50,753 nt of DNA from a virus (taxonomy: Duplodnaviria; Caudoviricetes): IMG/VR virus record IMGVR_UViG_3300049491_000401, positions 1-50,753 of that record; one strand, given 5' to 3'. The notes below the pieces were generated by a model that did not search any database, was not told the origin of the DNA, and saw only the letters and a list, made by a program, of their open reading frames with translations. This document shows, piece after piece, positions 4,216 to 50,753 of the stretch; position 1 is the stretch's first letter, and each line of letters begins with the position of its first letter. The position numbers and the translations under genes are program-made.

Positions 4216-4959
4216 TTACTCCGCTGCTTGAGGGGTGGCGTCGCCGAGGTCTTGCATCCGATCGGCATATTCATCGTCCAGAATTTCAACCCATCGTGCG
4301 GGAGCCGTCGCCCATTCGTCGGCGTAGCTTAAGCGGATGAACCTCAGCCCCTCGACATCGCCCGCACCCTTGATGTGTCGGCGGATCTCGTTGAAAGCCC
4401 TGTCCGTCCCGTCCTTCTTGGCTGCACTGGAAGACTTACGTTTCTTGGTCTCATTCAGCGCGAGAAGGTCTTCCTCATTGTCGGCTTGGGGCATACTGTC
4501 GAGGTCAAGATCGCCCGTGGGAATCTTGAACAGAGACCGTAAATAGGCCTTCTCGACGTAGGATTGAGCGGCCTGGAATGTCTGCGGGCCCGTCACTTGG
4601 ATGAACAGCGTGCGCCTCGATCGCGGGTCGTGCCACGTCGCATCCTCGGTCGCGAGCAGGAAGGAAAACACGGCTTTGAGCCATTGGCTGGTTTTGCCGT
4701 CCTTTTCGATGCGGACCGTCTCGGCATGCTCCTCCAGCGGAAGGATCATCAGCCCGACCTCGCCAAGCTTGCGCGTAACGGCCGCATAGATGTCGTCGGC
4801 ACTGGCGAACATGTAGTTGCCATGCAGATTCTTTGTGGACTTGGATACCGCCCCCATCGTGGCTTGAACGCGGCATACGGCCTTGACGATCGACGGCGGC
4901 ATAGCCGTGACACTCGGGCGTGAAATCGTTTCGTTCTCTGGAAAGAATCGACTCATCAT
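4216..4959 (-). CDS. erf: ERF-family single-strand annealing protein
   Basis: KN.HGNYMFASADDI and AAQSY.EKAYLRSLF.I.TGD motifs; RBS GGGAGG. Confidence 0.8.
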   Translation of the reverse strand: MMSRFFPENETISRPSVTAMPPSIVKAVCRVQATMGAVSKSTKNLHGNYMFASADDIYAAVTRKLGEVGLMILPLEEHAETVRIEKDGKTSQWLKAVFSFLLATEDATWHDPRSRRTLFIQVTGPQTFQAAQSYVEKAYLRSLFKIPTGDLDLDSMPQADNEEDLLALNETKKRKSSSAAKKDGTDRAFNEIRRHIKGAGDVEGLRFIRLSYADEWATAPARWVEILDDEYADRMQDLGDATPQAAE

Positions 4960-5034
4960 CCCCTCCCGATCAGCTTGACAGTTCCGGCGGCAATCGCCAG
5001 AGACAGCGCGACGAACATCACCCAGCCCTCTATC

Positions 5035-5253
5035 TCACCCATTCCGAGCCCTCTCGATCAAATAAGCCGCCCGAGCCCGGTCGGTGTGGCGCTTCTTTTT
5101 CTGCACATCCTGCCAGATCACGCGGTTGATGAGCGTCCGATCAAGGCCGGTTTTTCGGTGGATCGAATTTTTGCTCATGCCTGCATCGCGAAGCTGGAGG
5201 ATTTTCATGTTCCGCTTTTTCAGGTAGTGTGGATCTGCTAAAACACACGACAT
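5035..5253 (-). CDS. Small HTH protein
   Basis: GMSKNSIHRKTGLDRTLINRVI; RBS AAGGAGG. Confidence 0.65.
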   Translation of the reverse strand: MSCVLADPHYLKKRNMKILQLRDAGMSKNSIHRKTGLDRTLINRVIWQDVQKKKRHTDRARAAYLIERARNG

Positions 5254-5263
5254 GTTGACCTCC

Positions 5264-5578
5264 TTACGCCGCTTGAGACTCCGCCGCCGCATGCTGTGCC
5301 GCCAATCGGCGCTCTGGATATTCGTCCGCCCATTTCCGCCGGATATGAGCCTCCCAATCCAATTGGATATGAGCGATCAAGCGGGCCGCGAATTCCGCTT
5401 CGAACAGGCAAACGCTTCCGCCACGTGCCGGAAATGGCCGGTCATTGATCCTTAAATTGCTGACGTAGACCCGCCCATGACGGACCTCGGCTTCTGCCGT
5501 CAGTCCCGGAATGAGAATCGCGAATTTCTCGCCGGTCGAGTCCATCAAATACACGTCGTCATCGAGTTCGAGTTGCAT
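5264..5578 (-). CDS. Hypothetical protein
   Basis: ATG at 5578 with RBS AGGAGG. Confidence 0.7.
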   Translation of the reverse strand: MQLELDDDVYLMDSTGEKFAILIPGLTAEAEVRHGRVYVSNLRINDRPFPARGGSVCLFEAEFAARLIAHIQLDWEAHIRRKWADEYPERRLAAQHAAAESQAA

Positions 5579-5589
5579 GGTTTGCCTCC

Positions 5590-5915
5590 TGAGTTTCTCC
5601 ATCCGGGGAGCAGCAATTGCCCTCGCCACTCCCCGGAACCGGCCCCCGCCGAAAAAACGAACGAGAGAAAGTTGTCTGCCACCTGTCGGGACCAAACCGG
5701 CACCATTGCCCTCTCTCTCGTCCTCCAGAACACCTTCCGAGCCTCGCCGACCGGCAAGGGCGCCACGTAACGGGCGTGGCCGTCTGCCCACTCGGATTTC
5801 ATCAGACCCGTTCCCCGACTATCCCGTGGGGTCCATTGCCGGGACTGGCTGGGCTTCCCACTTTCCGGCGAGGCCCGGACGGTACTCTGGAGGACGCCTA
5901 GCGCAGCGGCGCTAG
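5590..5915 (-). ncRNA. Candidate large structured non-coding RNA
   Basis: 31-bp stem (5866-5896 with 5719-5749; 30 pairs including 3 G-U on the minus strand), several further stems, no credible ORF. Confidence 0.7.
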
Positions 5916-5931
5916 ACCGTCGTCGCCGCGT

Positions 5932-6069
5932 CTACTTGGCACCCTCCCGGCGCTGGCGGGCGCGCTTGAACATGGGGCGGGTGAAGAACCCGAGGATGAG
6001 AAATCCGGCCATTCCCGCCGATCCGCCTAGAACGACGGCCGCGAAGATTTTGAGATAGTAAGCCGTCAT
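5932..6069 (-). CDS. Small membrane protein
   Basis: Hydrophobic helix plus basic tail; ATGA overlap with the pentapeptide gene. Confidence 0.6.
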   Translation of the reverse strand: MTAYYLKIFAAVVLGGSAGMAGFLILGFFTRPMFKRARQRREGAK

Positions 6070-6659
6070 GACGCGGCCTCGGCTTTGATGGCTTTGTCTG
6101 GCTGCGGCTGCTCTTCCAGCCAATCGATAGCCCGTAGGTACATTGCCGCCAGAGGCCGGGAGCCGCTCGCGGACGCATTTGTCCGGTAGTGAGCGCGCGC
6201 CTCCTCGATCGTAAACCATCGGCACCCGGCCGCGATTTTCCAGAGGTCACCTTGCCAAACAGCGACGGGTCGATACCCGCGCTCGTCACCGACCGGCAAA
6301 CAAATGATGCCGGTGGCGCGCCAGAGGCTGGCACCGTGGAGGCTGGCACCGTCGAGGCTGGCACCGACGAGGCTGGCACCGACGAGGCTGGCACCGACGA
6401 GGCTGGCACCGACGAGGCTGGCACCGTCTAGGCTGGCACCGTCGAGGCTGGCACCGTCGAGGCGGGCACGGCCGAGGCGGGCACGGTCGAGGCTGGCACC
6501 GTGGAGGCGGGCACCGTCGAGGCGGGCACCGTCGAGGCGGGCACCGTCGAGGCGGGCACCGTCGAGGCGGGCACGGTCCGGATCAAGATAATCTGTCATG
6601 CCGCGATCAATCCAAGCCGCATGGCGTTTCAGGATTTCATAGAGTTCTGTTTTTGTCAT
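6066..6659 (-). CDS. Pentapeptide-repeat protein
   Basis: About 17 A(R/S)L(D/V/H/G)(G/R) units followed by an AGCRWFT..EA..H C-terminal domain. Confidence 0.92.
6324..6576. repeat. 15-bp tandem repeat encoding the pentapeptides
   Basis: Units such as GAGGCTGGCACCGAC and GAGGCGGGCACCGTC. Confidence 0.95.
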
Positions 6660-6729
6660 TTTTGCTTCCCTCACTCGGCTGGATCGATGACCGCTCGGCA
6701 TCCGCGGCCTCTCGTGAACCAGTCCAAAC

Positions 6730-6800
6730 CAGCAGCGCGGTCACGGTGGGGGGTCCACCCCGCTGAAGGCGCCCCGGAGAAAGGCGGGTCCGCGCTGCTG
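6730..6800 (-). promoter_or_regulatory. Structured 5' leader of the left operon
   Basis: Perfect 11-bp inverted repeat CAGCAGCGCGG/CCGCGCTGCTG closing 49 nt, just downstream of the predicted promoter. Confidence 0.6.
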
Positions 6801-6809
6801 ATGGCCGTA

Positions 6810-6838
6810 ACAATAAATTACGAACGAGGATGCGTCAA
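6810..6838 (-). promoter_or_regulatory. Leftward sigma70-type promoter (PL-like)
   Basis: TTGACG-17 nt-TATTGT on the minus strand, overlapped by the CGTAA-N7-TTACG inverted repeat. Confidence 0.7.
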
Positions 6839-6876
6839 CAACAATGTGCGGAAAAGTTACGCGATTTGTCAACGGC

Positions 6877-6885
6877 TGTGGATAA
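6877..6885 (-). promoter_or_regulatory. Consensus DnaA box TTATCCACA
   Basis: TGTGGATAA on the plus strand, intergenic, upstream of PL. Confidence 0.5.
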
Positions 6886-6913
6886 AGAGGACCGGATCGA
6901 CCTAGGCAATCAC

Positions 6914-7183
6914 CTAGGAATTAACGATAGGCGGTGCTGGTGATGGTCTGGGATTTGATGGCAATATCAGATCATTGGGTGTAATTTTGAGTATCGCGCA
7001 AATGCGAAGAAGCATCTCAAAGTTCGGCTCAACTTCGCCTCGCTCGTACCGCCTGTACCGAGCGCCCTCTATGCCTAAAAGTTGCGCGAGGTCTTCTCCT
7101 GAGGCATAGCCAGCGTCGGAGCGGGCCTCAGCAAGACGCCTCCCAAATTCACGCTTTATTCTGTCGTGTCGCGAAACCGCCAT
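6914..7183 (-). CDS. XRE-family HTH regulator (repressor-like, no peptidase domain)
   Basis: RLAEARSDAGY...YRRYERGEVEP...LKITPNDL. Confidence 0.88.
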   Translation of the reverse strand: MAVSRHDRIKREFGRRLAEARSDAGYASGEDLAQLLGIEGARYRRYERGEVEPNFEMLLRICAILKITPNDLILPSNPRPSPAPPIVNS

Positions 7184-7245
7184 GCGCCTTCATACATCGG
7201 GCGAAACTAATCCACACGTAACAGTGTAGCTATACGAGTTTGCCC

Positions 7246-7273
7246 TTGACTAGAACAGAAAGTTACGTAACAA
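7246..7273 (+). promoter_or_regulatory. Rightward promoter with palindromic operator GTTACGTAAC (7262-7271)
   Basis: TTGACT at 7246; palindrome over the -10 region; the -10 match itself is weak. Confidence 0.55.
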
Positions 7274-7281
7274 ATGGTTGC

Positions 7282-7563
7282 ATGATGAGCAGCAAGACCA
7301 TTACGGCTCGTGTAAACCGGATCTTCTCGGCTCGGCTCCGGGAGAAGCGGAAGATGTGCGGCTACAAATCCGCGGAATCATTTGCAACGGCCGTCGGAAT
7401 GAAACCTCATACGTATCGGCGCTATGAGCGCGGCACAGCGCAGCCCAGCCTCGTAGTTCTCGCGCGCATCTGCATGGAATTGGACGTAACGCCAAACGAC
7501 ATTTTGCCTGAGCCGAAGACAGTTTGGCACGAGGACGGATCACCCGTTCTTGCCGCCGCCTAG
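7282..7563 (+). CDS. XRE-family HTH regulator (Cro-like position)
   Basis: RLREKRKMCGY...YRRYERGTAQP...LDVTPNDIL; no RBS, possibly leaderless. Confidence 0.88.
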   Translation: MMSSKTITARVNRIFSARLREKRKMCGYKSAESFATAVGMKPHTYRRYERGTAQPSLVVLARICMELDVTPNDILPEPKTVWHEDGSPVLAAA

Positions 7564-8204: not shown

Positions 8205-8549
8205 ATGTCAGCGTTCAAAGGAAAGCCGTTCACCGATGTCCTCGGAGAAATCGAAAACGGAGACCTTCTCCGCGATCTCACCGAGGCGACCTATGAGATG
8301 ATCGCCGCCGTGATGGAAACCCGCAAACCGGGCAAGGTCAAGATCGTTTTGTCGTTCTCGCCGACCGGCAAGGGCACCGTCAATCTCGATGCCGACTACG
8401 ACGCCACGGTGCCCGAGCACGACCGCCCGACAACGACGTTTTTTGTGGGCAAGGACTACTCCCTCCAACGCAACGACCCCGCGCAGCCGCGTCTGCCGCT
8501 GCGCGAGGTTGAAGTTCCCAACAACGACCCCGTGAAGGTCGCTCAATAA
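8205..8549 (+). CDS. Conserved phage protein (usual upstream partner of DUF2303)
   Basis: ETRKPGKVKIVLSF...TFFV..D..LQRNDP.Q; RBS AAGGAG. Confidence 0.75.
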   Translation: MSAFKGKPFTDVLGEIENGDLLRDLTEATYEMIAAVMETRKPGKVKIVLSFSPTGKGTVNLDADYDATVPEHDRPTTTFFVGKDYSLQRNDPAQPRLPLREVEVPNNDPVKVAQ

Positions 8550-14313: not shown

Positions 14314-14793
14314 ATGATCTGGTATGCCCTCCAAGTTCGCGGTTCTCAGGAATTGGCGATCGCCAACGATCTTCGCGCCGAAGGGCATACGGTGTTCGTT
14401 CCGGTCGAGCGCATCATTCGTGCCGCCCGGAACGCCAAGGGCAAGCTCACGGAGCGCGAAACGATCAAGCCGCTGGTGACGTCCTATGTTTTCTGCGATG
14501 CGCCCTACGTGGCTCACAAGCACGTCTACGGGCCTGTCACGTTCGGGTCTCAGGCCTACGGCATCCCGGACGCAGCAATGACCCCACTCAAGGCCCTCAA
14601 TGGCCGGGATCGGCGAGAAGGCCAACAAGTCGCTGTCTTCACGATTGGCCAGGTGGTCAAGCTCACCGGCGGCTCGTTCGAAGGAAAATCCGTCACCATC
14701 ACCAAGCGCGTCAACGGTAAGGTTGTGGTGCTCATGGACATCATCGGCGGGCCAAGGCGCGTTGTCCTCACTCAAGACCAGATCGCGGCTTGA
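14314..14793 (+). CDS. NusG-family antiterminator (NGN + KOW)
   Basis: WYALQV..GSQE, KPLVTSYVF, IGQVVKLTGGSFEG. Confidence 0.88.
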   Translation: MIWYALQVRGSQELAIANDLRAEGHTVFVPVERIIRAARNAKGKLTERETIKPLVTSYVFCDAPYVAHKHVYGPVTFGSQAYGIPDAAMTPLKALNGRDRREGQQVAVFTIGQVVKLTGGSFEGKSVTITKRVNGKVVVLMDIIGGPRRVVLTQDQIAA

Positions 14794-42298: not shown

Positions 42299-45160
42299 AT
42301 GAGCCTCAAGGATTGCATCACGGCAGCCGTGCGCCAGGGCCACATTACGCTTGAGGAAGGGCAGACCCTCGCCAAGCGCTACGACAACATCGCTAAGCAG
42401 GTTCTGAGCACGGGCGAGGCCAAGGCGCAATTTGTGGCTGAGCTTGAGATCGAGGCCGCCGAACGCAAGCGCAGGGCCTTCCTGATGGAAGGTGTGCGGG
42501 GCAAGCTGCTCGCCGAACTCAAGGGATACCGCAACCTCAAGGGCGAGGAAGACATCGCCGAAGCGTTTCTGATGATGCACGAGAACTATGGTCGCATGGG
42601 TTCCTACATCGCCGACGCGGAGGGCGCCCGCACGGTGATCCAGCGACGAGCCCATGAGCAACTCAGCGACCTTTTGCGCGAGTTCCGCAAGGGCGCTATC
42701 ACGGGCGATCTGCGCCGCTCCCGTCCCAAAGTGCATGCTCGCTTGCAAAACGTCGTGCGCGAACTGTTCGGAGAATCAACGGGCGACGCCCCAGCCGCGA
42801 TGATGGCCAAGGCCTGGGAGAAGGTCTCCGAAGATTTGCGCGTCCGCTTCAATGAGGCAGGCGGTGCCATCCAGAAACTCGAGAAGTGGGGCCTACCTCA
42901 GGGGCACGATCAGCAAGCCTTGCTCGACTATGGCAAGGAAAAATGGGTCGATCGCCTGATGCAGGAAGGCGTTCTCGACCGCGACAAAACTGTGCATCCA
43001 TTGACCAAGCGCCGGATGACGGATGAGGAATTGCGCGAGAGCCTGAATGTGATCTGGGACCGCATCACCACCGATGGTTGGATTGACCGGGAGGCCTCCG
43101 GCGTGCCGACCGGCAAGGGCGCGTTGTGGTCACAACACGCTGACCACCGCTTCCTGCATTTCAAGTCAGCCGATGCCTGGATGGACTACGCCAAAGCCTT
43201 CGGCAACCCAGACCCCTACGGCGCAATGATGGGCCACATCAACAAGATGGCCCGCGACATCGCACACATGGAAAAATTCGGGCCGAACCCGACCGTGATC
43301 CGCACCTACCTCAAGCAGCACCTGCAAGCCGAAGCGGCCAAGGTCAAGTCCACAGAGGTCGTCATCGGGGAGCAGATCGAGCAGTTGAAAGATCTCTCGG
43401 GGAAGCTCACGAAACCCAACCCGGAACGCGAAAAGATAACGACTGAGATCGCGAGCGTCCTGAAGGACCTGGACGCCGAGCGCCGAACGAAGTGGGGTAA
43501 ACGGCACAGTCGCTACATGCGCGAAGAGCGCGATCCGTTGTCGACAGCCAAGGTCGCCGAGGTCGAGCTGCGTATGGACACGCTTTATCAGAAAATGACG
43601 ACCCTGACGGATAAGCTGAAGGGCACGCCAGCCACCATCCGCGATGCCGAAATCGCCCACGCCATCGACTTGCTCACCGAGGAGATGCGCGACCCGATCC
43701 AGTTCGCCAACACCAAGAACCCACAAGACCATTTGACGAGAACGCTCTACAAGGCCGACGCGCGATGGGAACTCATGCGTGGCTCGATGAGCCCCGTGAG
43801 TGCGTCGTTTGCGAATGTCATGGCGAGTACGCGCAACCTCATCTCTGCGGCCAGCTTGGGAAGCGCCTGGGCCTCCTCTCTCGCCGATCCGATGTTTGGG
43901 CAGGACATGCGGTTGCGAATGGGGATGGGGTTCGCCAAAGCCAACTTCGGGCGTGTCTTGACCGTTGCCCTCAAAGAGATGGTGACGATGGGCAGCCGCG
44001 AAGACGCCGTCAGGGCAGGCCTCGGGCTCGACAGCGCCATCGATGTCATGCACCGGACGGCCAAGGAGAACAACTCCATGGATGCGCGGGCCTGGACCGG
44101 CTACCTCGCCGACCGCACGCTGACCTATGGCATGCTGTCGCCCTGGACCCAGGCAGGCAAACACCTCGCAGGCCTCGATCTCATGGCGTGGTTCGCGGAC
44201 AACACAAAAAACGATTGGGCGCACATTCCTGATGGCCTACGCAAGGGGCTCGTGTCGCACGGCTTCGATGCTGCGTCGTGGGATCTGATCCGCAACGTAC
44301 CCCTGCATGAGCCCAAACGCGGCGTGTTCTATCTCCGCGCTCCGGATATCGAGGGCGCTGCTGGCCGGGAGCTGTCCGAACGCTATGCAGCGATGATTTT
44401 GCGCGAGACCCGCTATGCGGTTCCGGAAGCAACCGTCGCTTCACGAGCGGTTGGGGGTGCGACGCGGCCCGGAACATTTCACGGCGAAGTGTGGCGCTCC
44501 ATGATGCAGTTCAAAGGGTTCGGGATTGCCGTGGTTATGCTGCATGCAAACCGAATGGCGCGGGAGTTGATGGCGGGGGACAGATCGGCGGCGAGCATGG
44601 CCGGGGCGATGCTGATCACGGGCGCGTTTCTCGGCGCCGTGTCGATGTCCCTGAAGGACATCAAGGACGGTCGCGATCCCCGCAAGTGGCTCGATGAAAA
44701 AACCTATTTCGATCCGATGTTTTGGGCGGCGGCGGCACTGCAATCGGGTGGCCTCGGTATCTATGGCGATTTCCTGTTTTCGAATACGGGCCGCACGGGT
44801 AGCGGCCTGGGAAAAACGATGGTGGGCCCTGTCGTCGATCGCATTGACAACGTCCTCGGCCTGACCATGGGCAATGTCGGCCAAGCCATCCGCGGGGAGA
44901 AGACCAACCGTGGCCGGGAGGCAGCGAAGCTGGTCCGCCAGAACACGCCGGTCATCGGCAACAACATTTTCTTAGGATTAGCCTATCAGCGTGTGCTGAT
45001 GGATCAGCTTCAACGGCTGGCTGATCCCGAGGCACACGCTGATTTCAGGCGGCAAATTCAACACAGACGCAAGGATTTCAAGCAAGATTTCTGGTGGGAG
45101 CCCGGTTCCTCGTCTCCAAGACGCGCCCCGGACTTGACCCGTCCCTTGGCCACACGTTAA
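42299..45160 (+). CDS. Large internal virion (ejection) protein
   Basis: WGLPQ.HD, RFLHFKSADAW..Y, MQFKGF, GGLGIYGDFLF motifs. Confidence 0.85.
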   Translation: MSLKDCITAAVRQGHITLEEGQTLAKRYDNIAKQVLSTGEAKAQFVAELEIEAAERKRRAFLMEGVRGKLLAELKGYRNLKGEEDIAEAFLMMHENYGRMGSYIADAEGARTVIQRRAHEQLSDLLREFRKGAITGDLRRSRPKVHARLQNVVRELFGESTGDAPAAMMAKAWEKVSEDLRVRFNEAGGAIQKLEKWGLPQGHDQQALLDYGKEKWVDRLMQEGVLDRDKTVHPLTKRRMTDEELRESLNVIWDRITTDGWIDREASGVPTGKGALWSQHADHRFLHFKSADAWMDYAKAFGNPDPYGAMMGHINKMARDIAHMEKFGPNPTVIRTYLKQHLQAEAAKVKSTEVVIGEQIEQLKDLSGKLTKPNPEREKITTEIASVLKDLDAERRTKWGKRHSRYMREERDPLSTAKVAEVELRMDTLYQKMTTLTDKLKGTPATIRDAEIAHAIDLLTEEMRDPIQFANTKNPQDHLTRTLYKADARWELMRGSMSPVSASFANVMASTRNLISAASLGSAWASSLADPMFGQDMRLRMGMGFAKANFGRVLTVALKEMVTMGSREDAVRAGLGLDSAIDVMHRTAKENNSMDARAWTGYLADRTLTYGMLSPWTQAGKHLAGLDLMAWFADNTKNDWAHIPDGLRKGLVSHGFDAASWDLIRNVPLHEPKRGVFYLRAPDIEGAAGRELSERYAAMILRETRYAVPEATVASRAVGGATRPGTFHGEVWRSMMQFKGFGIAVVMLHANRMARELMAGDRSAASMAGAMLITGAFLGAVSMSLKDIKDGRDPRKWLDEKTYFDPMFWAAAALQSGGLGIYGDFLFSNTGRTGSGLGKTMVGPVVDRIDNVLGLTMGNVGQAIRGEKTNRGREAAKLVRQNTPVIGNNIFLGLAYQRVLMDQLQRLADPEAHADFRRQIQHRRKDFKQDFWWEPGSSSPRRAPDLTRPLATR

Positions 45161-46897: not shown

Positions 46898-47054
46898 GCC
46901 GTCCAAGATCTGCAAACCGTGGAAGCAGATCAATATCCGAACTGCTGACAAACTGACACCCGAAACCGCCGGGGAGATCGAGCAGAACAACGTCGGTAGA
47001 GAGGCATTTGGCTGCCCCTACGAGCCACCGCTCAAGCGCGTGGCGGGGAAGTAG
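46773..47054 (+). CDS. o-spanin (Rz1-like lipoprotein); start uncertain
   Basis: Lipobox LSSGC, overlaps the i-spanin in another frame. Confidence 0.7.
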   Translation: MQWRRSRSGRKRRSTRLKLLNAGSILALLSSGCAVDTAQTVEPSKICKPWKQINIRTADKLTPETAGEIEQNNVGREAFGCPYEPPLKRVAGK

Positions 47055-47147
47055 CGTCTCCGGATGGAATCGAACCACCGACTTCCTGTAGTGATCGGAC
47101 CGAAATCCGATCACGCCAGGACCTCTAACCAGCTGAGGTACGGAGAC
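47055..47147 (-). ncRNA. tRNA-like RNA with the anticodon loop replaced by an extended hairpin
   Basis: Acceptor GTCTCCG/CGGAGAC, D arm CCTC-AGCTGGTTA-GAGG, T arm GGTGG-TTCGATT-CCATC, 36-nt anticodon arm. Confidence 0.88.
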
Positions 47148-47959: not shown

Positions 47960-48154
47960 GGGCCTAGTCCTTGTTAGCGTCGTACTTAGATTTTAGGCGC
48001 TGATAGGTGGCGTACTGCTGGGCCTCTATCTCGCGTTGATGACGCTCATCGTTCAGTCCGGCGATCACGTCATCTCTTGCCGCCGATGTGGCGGGCGTGT
48101 CCTTGCTTGTCGGCGGCACGCAGTTGCAGCATTTATTGTGCATCGCTGTCCCGG

Positions 48155-48367
48155 CTACGCCTCAGCCGGGACAGCGATGCAATCTGCGGACCCGCGTCCC
48201 CAGTATTCGAGCCGGTCGGGGACCAGATCGGGGCGACCGCAGCAAGAACCCATCACCCACTCCCCATCACGGATGTAGATCACCGCGTGAGTGTAGGAAC
48301 GGGTAGCGCTGTGACGAACGAGGACCGAACCGTCTGGAGCGCGGAAGCGAAATGTCTTGCTGGCCAT
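48155..48367 (-). CDS. Hypothetical protein
   Basis: RBS GGAG; R.S.TRSYTHAV. Confidence 0.6.
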   Translation of the reverse strand: MASKTFRFRAPDGSVLVRHSATRSYTHAVIYIRDGEWVMGSCCGRPDLVPDRLEYWGRGSADCIAVPAEA

Positions 48368-50453: not shown

Positions 50454-50753
50454 ATGCGGAAACCCAAGAAGTTGCCTCCGGAACACCCATATCCGACACA
50501 TCAGATAGGCTACGCGAGGGTGAGCACGACAGAACAAGATTTGCGAATGCAGATCGACGCGCTCCATAAAGTCGGTATCGAAGACAAGGATATCTACACC
50601 GACAAGAAGAGCGGCAGGAACAGGAAGCGACCGGGGCTCGAAGCCGCTCTCGAAGCGTGTCGGCCCGGCGACACTCTGACGGTCTGGAAGTTCGATCGAT
50701 TGAGCCGGAACGCGCTCGACATGATCACCATGCTGGAGGAGTGCAAAGTGCGT
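50454..50753 (+). CDS. Small serine recombinase, N-terminal catalytic part (continues across the origin to 472)
   Basis: IGYARVSTTEQDL..Q, SG...RPGL; in frame with the 74-472 ORF. Confidence 0.93.
   Translation, partial: MRKPKKLPPEHPYPTHQIGYARVSTTEQDLRMQIDALHKVGIEDKDIYTDKKSGRNRKRPGLEAALEACRPGDTLTVWKFDRLSRNALDMITMLEECKVR
50627..50753. repeat. Terminal direct repeat, identical to 1-127
   Basis: Exact match. Confidence 0.97.

Follow-up and report, generated by a model that had tools for sequence, protein, structure and literature searches.

A structured 178-nucleotide RNA domain of no described family, with an adjoining terminator-like hairpin, in an early operon spacer of a podovirus-like phage

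The element described here is a 178-nucleotide (nt) inverted-repeat domain at positions 5719 to 5896, minus strand, of the IMG/VR virus record IMGVR_UViG_3300049491_000401 (Duplodnaviria; Caudoviricetes). The record is complete, represents a podovirus-like phage and was analysed over its whole length of 50,753 bases, which is referred to as the window. The domain lies in a 353-nt spacer (5579-5931) of a leftward operon and is followed directly by a branched hairpin and a tract of six U residues. The favoured reading, held tentatively as a real possibility that stops short of the probable, is that it forms a cis-acting boundary module of the early-left transcript, in which a double-stranded RNA clamp that RNase III could cut is combined with an intrinsic terminator. 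The RNA belongs to no described family, and no published description of the element was found in the parts of the literature that were searched.

The domain is closed by a helix between 5866-5896 and 5719-5749, two arms of 31 nt each that are separated by 116 nt and are 87% complementary. An earlier note on this DNA, made from the sequence alone, had counted 30 of 31 positions as paired on the minus strand, and this count is reproduced: 27 pairs are Watson-Crick, three are G·U, and the one true mismatch divides the helix into 16 base pairs (bp), a 1x1 mismatch and 15 bp (pair probability 0.95-0.98). The arms are the longest inverted repeat in the window, the runners-up being of 24 nt at 83% and 79%, and a binomial estimate gives an expectation value (E) of about 3e-5 for the whole window. 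The window was shuffled 40 times by dinucleotides, and each time the top-scoring 31-nt repeat had only 21-23 matches, compared with the 27 observed. Three of the four departures from a perfect inverted repeat are A/C oppositions on the plus strand and become G·U pairs only on the minus strand, as the same note had stated. When the closing helix is taken together with the basal stem of the following hairpin (H2) and the stem of a further hairpin (H3), seven G·U pairs are counted on the minus strand and none on the plus, which has a one-sided probability of 1/128 if either way is equally likely, in a count that is not fully neutral, the minus-strand fold having been the first to show two of these stems. 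An RNA with the sequence of the minus (operon) strand would accommodate these non-canonical pairs, in agreement with the selection at RNA level that had been suggested. A helix of 16 + 15 bp is long enough for RNase III, and the closing helix provides the continuous double-stranded RNA of at least 20 bp (about two turns) that serves as the substrate criterion for this enzyme.

The 178 nt of the minus strand fold to -103.3 kcal/mol (z = -6.0), and 0 of 200 shuffles are as good. Beyond a small hairpin (UGGG-AAG-CCCA, 5850-5860), the pairing is continued by an inner helix, CCGGCAAUGG/CCCUUGCCGG (5833-5842 with 5751-5760), which pairs at 9 of 10 positions as previously described, and the interior of the domain forms a three-way junction. 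The stems proposed earlier for this interior are retained in part. GCCACG/CGUGGC is present in the minimum-free-energy fold, whereas CCCC/GGGG and GUCUG/CAGAC occur in the sequence but are paired otherwise in that fold; the earlier inner model reaches -94.5 kcal/mol (without its pseudoknot) versus -103.3 kcal/mol for the minimum-free-energy fold, and the inner stems are uncertain, with base-pair probabilities of 0.5-0.6. The complementarity behind the loop contact that had been suspected is present in extended form. Two 7-nt apical loops of the minimum-free-energy fold (5807-5813 and 5768-5774) are complementary over six contiguous Watson-Crick pairs (AACGGG/CCCGUU, duplex -8.6 kcal/mol), and random pairs of 7-nt loops with this composition would be so complementary with a probability of 0.0014. 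A CUGAUGA motif in the interior prompted consideration of a hammerhead ribozyme, which was rejected: no stem II can be drawn to GAAA and no Rfam hammerhead match is found.

The spacer is structured throughout, and as a whole it folds to -186.5 kcal/mol (z = -4.7) on the minus strand versus -161.2 kcal/mol (z = -4.1) on the plus strand. The minus-strand order is the stop codon of a 45-amino-acid open reading frame (ORF), a hairpin (H0), the domain, H2 without a linker, one G, the U6 tract, H3, AGGAGG and the ATG of a 104-amino-acid protein gene. H0 (5898-5915), a small GC hairpin of the centroid fold, has a stem of 7 bp and a loop of 4 nt and is separated from the domain downstream by 2 nt. H2 (5659-5723) is Y-shaped, with a fold of -38.1 kcal/mol (z = -2.4) and a 13-bp basal stem (5711-5723 with 5659-5671) of 11 Watson-Crick and two G·U pairs. 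This stem adjoins the closing helix, and the two have 2-5 nt in common at the 3' end of the helix; they coexist in the minimum-free-energy fold and in the centroid fold of the whole spacer, and H2 without the shared nucleotides keeps 10 bp and a U-rich tail. After H2 and one G stands the U6 tract, in GUUCGUUUUUUCGG (5652-5657). H2 with the U tract looks like an intrinsic terminator. This hairpin, the structured state of the whole spacer and the serine recombinase described below are additions to the earlier note. A consensus scan did not list the site because it allows only loops of 3-8 nt. H3 (5602-5637) has 13 bp (11 Watson-Crick and two G·U) and lies between the U tract and the ribosome-binding site AGGAGG (5585-5590), which is 6 nt upstream of the ATG at 5578-5576.

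The spacer is, to judge from its reading frames, non-coding. The local GC content is 67%, and the overlapping frames are all fairly open, as expected. Five ORFs over the element, compared with Pfam and PHROG at E up to 1, gave no family beyond one chance-level Pfam match of the plus-strand 97-amino-acid ORF (E 0.064; 13.7 bits versus a cut-off of 25). The plus-strand ORFs of 134 and 94 amino acids, which span both arms, have 0 relatives among 5.8 billion proteins, a set from which the record's own gene call is absent too. The minus-strand stop-to-stop frame (128 amino acids) has two weak, multi-stretch matches (E 2e-5 and 5e-4) to repeat-like proteins of more than 1000 amino acids, and the frame of the 104-amino-acid gene is open to 5791, yet its relatives match only the last 104 codons. 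Read-through of the TAG at 5934-5932 was also considered, the frame being open for 129 codons, and rejected: the product is Arg/Trp/Gly-rich, has no convincing relatives and runs into the start of the 104-amino-acid gene. The third-position GC of this frame, that of the 45-amino-acid ORF (5545-5931, minus), is the highest across the spacer at 0.70-0.80. We estimate that, at this GC content, a frame of this kind would stay open by chance with a probability of about 0.05, and the opening beyond the TAG is judged to be due to chance. The earlier concern that the region might be translated finds no support, as the overlapping frames are without convincing protein relatives.

All genes flanking the element are on the minus strand. 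In leftward order they encode a pentapeptide-repeat protein, the 45-amino-acid ORF, the 104-amino-acid protein after the 353-nt gap, an 85-amino-acid ORF, Erf, a NinB-like protein and an HNH endonuclease. The pentapeptide-repeat gene (6066-6701; Pfam Pentapeptide, 2.7e-21) is the first of the operon. Its stop codon overlaps the start (ATGA) of the 45-amino-acid hydrophobic ORF (5932-6069), which ends in the TAG at 5934-5932 and has no family match. The 104-amino-acid gene (5264-5578) is the first after the spacer, and the Erf gene (4216-4959) follows in the leftward operon. The flanking genes are tightly defined, as the upstream stop lies at 5932 and the downstream start at 5578 has both AGGAGG and a conserved N-terminus.

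A sigma-70-like promoter candidate (6810-6838, minus; TTGACG, 17 nt, TATTGT) lies downstream of a minus-strand helix-turn-helix (HTH) gene. The sigma-70-like scan gave one site versus a shuffle mean of 0.7, which is weak on its own; an operator-like dyad (CGTAA, 7 nt, TTACG) lies over the -10 hexamer of the candidate. The scan of 4900-7400 listed only this site (6838-6810), with no promoter-like site between 5932 and 5897, which argues for co-transcription of the element with the upstream genes. The HTH gene (6914-7183, minus) is divergent from a second HTH gene (7240-7563, plus), and the two form a cI/Cro-like switch. Given the promoter candidate, the HTH switch and the gene order, the earlier placement of the element in a left early operon is a fair description. 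The motif ACGTAAC has five matches in the window, three of them in the region of the divergent HTH genes (7216-7271). Motifs of operator type that are based on ACGTAAC/GTTACG are observed at 6800-6870 and 7210-7275, with a GTTACGTAAC palindrome at 7262-7271, and a single ACGTAAC is also observed within the RNA, in the hairpin 5762-5780.

Read as an operon boundary, the element would act as follows. The repressor-controlled leftward promoter would give an mRNA for the pentapeptide-repeat protein and the 45-amino-acid membrane peptide. RNA polymerase would then cross the domain and enter the branched hairpin and U6, where a fraction would terminate, while polymerases that read through, perhaps aided by the NusG paralogue of the phage, would reach the 104-amino-acid gene, Erf and other recombination genes. 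The 16 + 15 bp closing helix and the 9-bp inner helix would provide a very stable 3' structure for the upstream message, and the closing helix would, by its length, be a likely entry site for RNase III. With a stable 3' structure and a possible RNase III entry, the upstream and downstream parts of the operon could be set independently in amount and stability.

Several points weigh against an operon boundary. The helix is the only long one of its kind in the genome, and several sites are present in T7 and other phages whose transcripts depend on RNase III processing. The fold of the domain is supported from a single sequence, and no RNA run is listed among the sequencing runs that hold the stretch. 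The plus strand also folds well (-97.7 kcal/mol, z = -6.1), and thus the strand call rests on the G·U count, with the partiality mentioned above, and on context. Intrinsic terminators do not usually have a loop like that of H2, which is branched and 39 nt long. Finally, the three-way junction and the loop complementarity are not explained by a boundary function, and an interior of this kind would be superfluous in a mere processing site or stabilising hairpin. The interior and the 6-nt loop complementarity exceed what a boundary needs, so a second function is possible, and this unexplained part keeps alive the readings of the element as a trans-acting or an antitermination RNA.

The arms could also be a feature of the DNA rather than of the RNA. 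The geometry of the inverted repeat is typical of invertons and of miniature inverted-repeat transposable elements (MITEs), the plus strand folds about equally by z-score, and the phage encodes a small serine recombinase of the resolvase/invertase type, for which reason a DNA inversion switch was considered. This recombinase has 214 amino acids, a Resolvase domain with HTH_7 and the catalytic motif YARVST, and is encoded on the plus strand by 50454-50753 joined to 128-472. The element would then be an inverton with 31-bp repeats around 116 bp, a MITE-like insertion or a single-stranded DNA initiation signal. Any of these is very unlikely. The interior is self-complementary and the helix runs past the repeats, which an inverton does not need; the 7:0 bias of the G·U pairs favours a single-stranded molecule of the minus strand; the arms are without the internal dyad symmetry of hix/gix-type sites (best 6/14 and 6/13); and there is no promoter-like site inside. 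No target-site duplication is present, no second copy was found in the phage, and no copy of an arm was found in 802 alphaproteobacterial genomes sampled, where 0 of 7 aligned loci cover a whole arm; in the genomes covered, the MITE that the earlier note had allowed for finds no support.

A search of the whole window with Rfam 15, whose families include 6S, riboswitches, ribozymes, pRNA, Y RNA, c4 and EAR, returned 0 matches at gathering thresholds. A permissive search of 5450-6100 gave four matches at chance level (E 1.1-9; 10-19 bits versus thresholds of 37-89), and ARAGORN made no tRNA-type call at the element. The earlier failure to place the RNA in a known riboswitch or ribozyme class is thereby borne out, while the suggestion of a 6S-like polymerase mimic finds no 6S match even at E up to 10. 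The idea of a new switch fares no better, since no mutually exclusive fold gating the adjacent terminator was found. A riboswitch or other ligand-sensing leader controlling the adjoining terminator would suit the size, the multi-helix junction and the possible tertiary loop-loop contact, as well as the terminator-like hairpin directly after the domain. It is nonetheless highly improbable: no riboswitch of Rfam matches at E up to 10, the 31-bp closing helix far exceeds riboswitch P1 stems, only 2-5 nt are shared with the terminator stem, so that exclusive pairing is not seen, and the downstream genes serve recombination, not metabolism.

Relatives of the spacer were sought by several routes. 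A blastn search against GenBank phages and PLSDB plasmids gave no match. By blastn, nhmmer and a single-sequence covariance model (R1), no spacer-like sequence was found at Erf (2), DUF2303 (12 viral and 7 genomic) or pentapeptide-repeat (80) loci; for the last, blastn and nhmmer covered 80 of 80 loci and R1 75 of 80. The sole match of R1 was to the element, with 218 bits for the minus strand and 47.5 for the plus, and five whole related viral records gave none. A gapped pattern of the inner helix had 14 matches in IMG/VR, all in unrelated coding sequence, and a pattern that ran from the H2 stem into the beginning of the helix had none in IMG/VR and four in metagenomes, all of unrelated low-complexity sequence. 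When 401 + 401 alphaproteobacterial genomes were searched by BLAST with the spacer, 10 and 1 of them, respectively, had matches, all of them short (22-60 nt).

The 104-amino-acid protein has no tblastn match in GenBank phages or PLSDB plasmids; scans of IMG/VR and of the contigs of GTDB genomes and JGI metagenomes found no relative either, and a profile of its family returned nothing from IMG/VR. Five relatives (65-81% identity, 104-107 amino acids) are known from JGI and Logan contigs of 1.1-9.2 kb, and the N-terminus M(Q/E)LxLDDD is common to all five. The invariants of this family are LIPGLTAEAEVRHGRVYVS...RPFPARGG, and its members are environmental. Comparison with Pfam, PHROG and NCBIfam places the protein in no family, nothing useful came from the ESM Atlas, and AlphaFold models it poorly (predicted local distance difference test, pLDDT, 56).

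Among sequencing runs, three DNA runs of two studies hold the stretch. Over 5579-5931 the run contigs show no variant and no strand-changing joint, in assemblies that drop rare variants and cannot show RNA ends. A diverged relative is seen in one run (X1), which may be the source sample. A 311-nt contig of this run aligns to window positions 5678-5711, the interior of H2, and is then unlike the window on both sides. The H2 interior is at least 80% identical, while the adjoining closing-helix arm has diverged, three transitions among its first 13 positions being followed by further differences, in a comparison that covers this one of the two arms. A GA/CU stem of this contig is Watson-Crick throughout where the window has G·U, a one-sided change that keeps the pairing on the minus strand only. 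The contig indicates that a family exists, in which the branched hairpin is best conserved and the closing helix can drift in sequence. These results bear on the reading of the fold as a structure without selected function, such as the remnant of a palindromic duplication. No family of the element is detected in any of the collections searched, and it stands alone as such a remnant would, but the G·U bias, the pairing past the repeat, the adjacent structured modules and the diverged relative in run X1 leave this reading only a slender chance.

A noncoding RNA released by RNase III, possibly a decoy, was the interpretation offered by the earlier note. In its fuller form, the domain, with or without H2 and the U tract as its 3' end, would be cut from the early transcript to act in trans as a decoy or sponge or as loop-joined multimers. 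Such a role would account for the elaborate interior with its three-way junction and 6-nt loop complementarity, for the terminator-like 3' end directly after the domain and for the lack of an Rfam family, and the closing helix is of a kind that RNase III can cleave. A possible target is present too: one strand of the inner helix is antisense, at 21 of 22 nt, to the phrog_204 mRNA (8357-8378). However, this segment is base-paired within the fold, the RNA is without a promoter of its own, and homologues were not found in the collections searched. Overall, a stand-alone RNA is considered unlikely, while deserving of attention.

The antisense match itself may have a simpler explanation. Most of the inspected loci of the alphaproteobacterial genomes with short matches contain one 22-24-mer that encodes SPTGKGA, in genes for P-type ATPase-like and other proteins, and the recurrence of this 22-24-mer in unrelated bacterial coding sequences makes the antisense match look like a codon coincidence. 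In the window a 22-nt direct repeat is observed on the plus strand at 5743-5764, 8357-8378 (21/22) and 43102-43123 (19/22), with PTGKG in the plus frame of each; two of the copies are in real genes, and the same 22-24-mer is present in genes of Hyphomicrobiales. On this sequence comparison, the repeat is probably a coincidence of codon usage.

The phage encodes a NusG paralogue (14314-14793, plus) with a Pfam NusG NGN domain (1e-6). The NCBIfam matches are to UpxY (9.6e-13), RfaH (1.2e-6) and LoaP (7.6e-5), all under the model cut-offs. The gene is immediately upstream of the packaging and structural genes, and its product is a candidate late-gene antiterminator. As the phage encodes a specialised NusG paralogue, control by termination and antitermination is plausible in this phage, and a NusG-like protein could also govern read-through at an operon boundary. 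An alternative is that the RNA itself antiterminates, the domain or the H2 interior modifying RNA polymerase or loading the NusG paralogue or the 104-amino-acid protein to promote read-through. The NusG/UpxY/RfaH/LoaP-like protein would fit this role, as would a structured RNA just upstream of a terminator-like hairpin in an early operon, and in the single partial relative the H2 interior is conserved better than the rest, more than one would expect of a plain terminator loop. On the other side, the element is present in one copy, about 900 nt downstream of the promoter, with no second copy or shared motif found in the rightward or late leaders; its shape is unlike that of put, and the AlphaFold model of the 104-amino-acid protein is too poor to suggest RNA binding. 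Antitermination by this RNA is regarded as rather improbable. A broader proposal is a new class of phage structured RNA of about 180 nt, with a 31-bp clamp and kissing loops, that is freed at its stem and either acts in trans on a protein or antiterminates without a put-like shape; this too is doubtful, though it merits serious consideration.

The first and last 127 bases of the record are identical, and this 127-bp terminal repeat looks like the overlap of a circular assembly; the serine recombinase gene spans the junction of the record ends. No tyrosine or large serine integrase is seen among the ORFs scanned. The virion-type genes include a T7-type head-to-tail connector, a capsid protein and a T7 gp14-like internal virion protein, and further virion or packaging genes encode a tail protein with an S74 chaperone domain, a small-terminase-like protein and a large-terminase-type protein. 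Genes for GcrA-like, DUF2303, DUF1376 and C5-methylase proteins are also present and point to an alphaproteobacterial host.

Three further sequence features of the record were noted. The pentapeptide-repeat gene has a 15-nt tandem periodicity (6264-6623, minus), at which metagenome contigs pile up and show joints that go back on themselves; metagenome assemblies of this gene may be unreliable. ARAGORN lists a 94-nt 'tRNA-???' with an odd two-base anticodon at 47054-47147 (minus). No Rfam tRNA is found at gathering thresholds in the whole window, and the call is probably false, built around a 16-nt inverted repeat (47084-47121). A perfect 18-bp hairpin with a 7-nt loop (48139-48181), the sole perfect long palindrome of the record, may be a bidirectional terminator or a binding site.

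A structured intercistronic spacer that joins a double-stranded stem to a terminator in a phage early operon is of a kind that has precedents. RNase III processing hairpins are present between phage early cistrons, as in the early R sites of T7, the N-leader site of lambda, and sib. The element resembles the T7 and lambda hairpins in its long, near-perfect double-stranded stem between the cistrons of an early polycistronic transcript, and resembles lambda sib/tI in lying beside a terminator. By contrast, it occurs once per genome, its helix closes a branched interior of 116 nt in place of a simple loop, and its cleavage is predicted. In lambda, intrinsic terminators of the tL1 type separate immediate-early from delayed-early genes. 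The hairpin and U6 described here likewise lie between the promoter-proximal genes and those for recombination, and this phage too has an elongation-factor paralogue. The hairpin differs from the tL1 type in that it is branched and has a 39-nt interior that is conserved in one relative, and termination at this site is putative.

Structured RNAs upstream of terminators, in operons that need read-through, are also exemplified by HK022 put, the LoaP leader hairpin and RfaH ops, which the element resembles in this respect. HK022 put has two copies, one for each early promoter, and each consists of two short stem-loops over about 70 nt. Set beside this definition, the element is not put-like: it is present in one copy instead of two, is far larger and has a 31-bp clamp. 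No motif common to it and the other leaders of this phage was found.

The pRNA of phi29 (RF00044), of about 120-174 nt, has a helix that pairs its 5' and 3' ends, a three-way junction and two complementary loops. The element is of similar size and shares the end-closing helix, the three-way junction and the mutual complementarity of two loops. It differs from pRNA in that no Rfam match is found at E up to 10, the phage has a T7-like portal together with terminase genes of the small and large types, and the domain occupies a spacer of an early operon and is immediately followed by a terminator-like hairpin, a setting without parallel in pRNA.

Candidate structured RNAs have been collected from IMG/VR on a large scale, in a catalogue of about 10,000 candidates of 29-151 nt, many of them terminators or cis-regulatory leaders, each required to occur in at least three distinct IMG/VR regions (PMC10690425). 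The element shares with this collection its source in a phage intergenic region of IMG/VR. By the size range and the occurrence rule of the catalogue, it would stand apart through its 178 nt and the failure to find a second IMG/VR copy. If the favoured reading is correct, the first early genes of this uncultured podovirus of alphaproteobacterial type would be parted from its recombination genes by a clamp, a branched terminator and, possibly, a regulated read-through, a design that is familiar from lambda and T7 and would here be made from an RNA without a known family, in an element that is small, self-contained and easily cloned.

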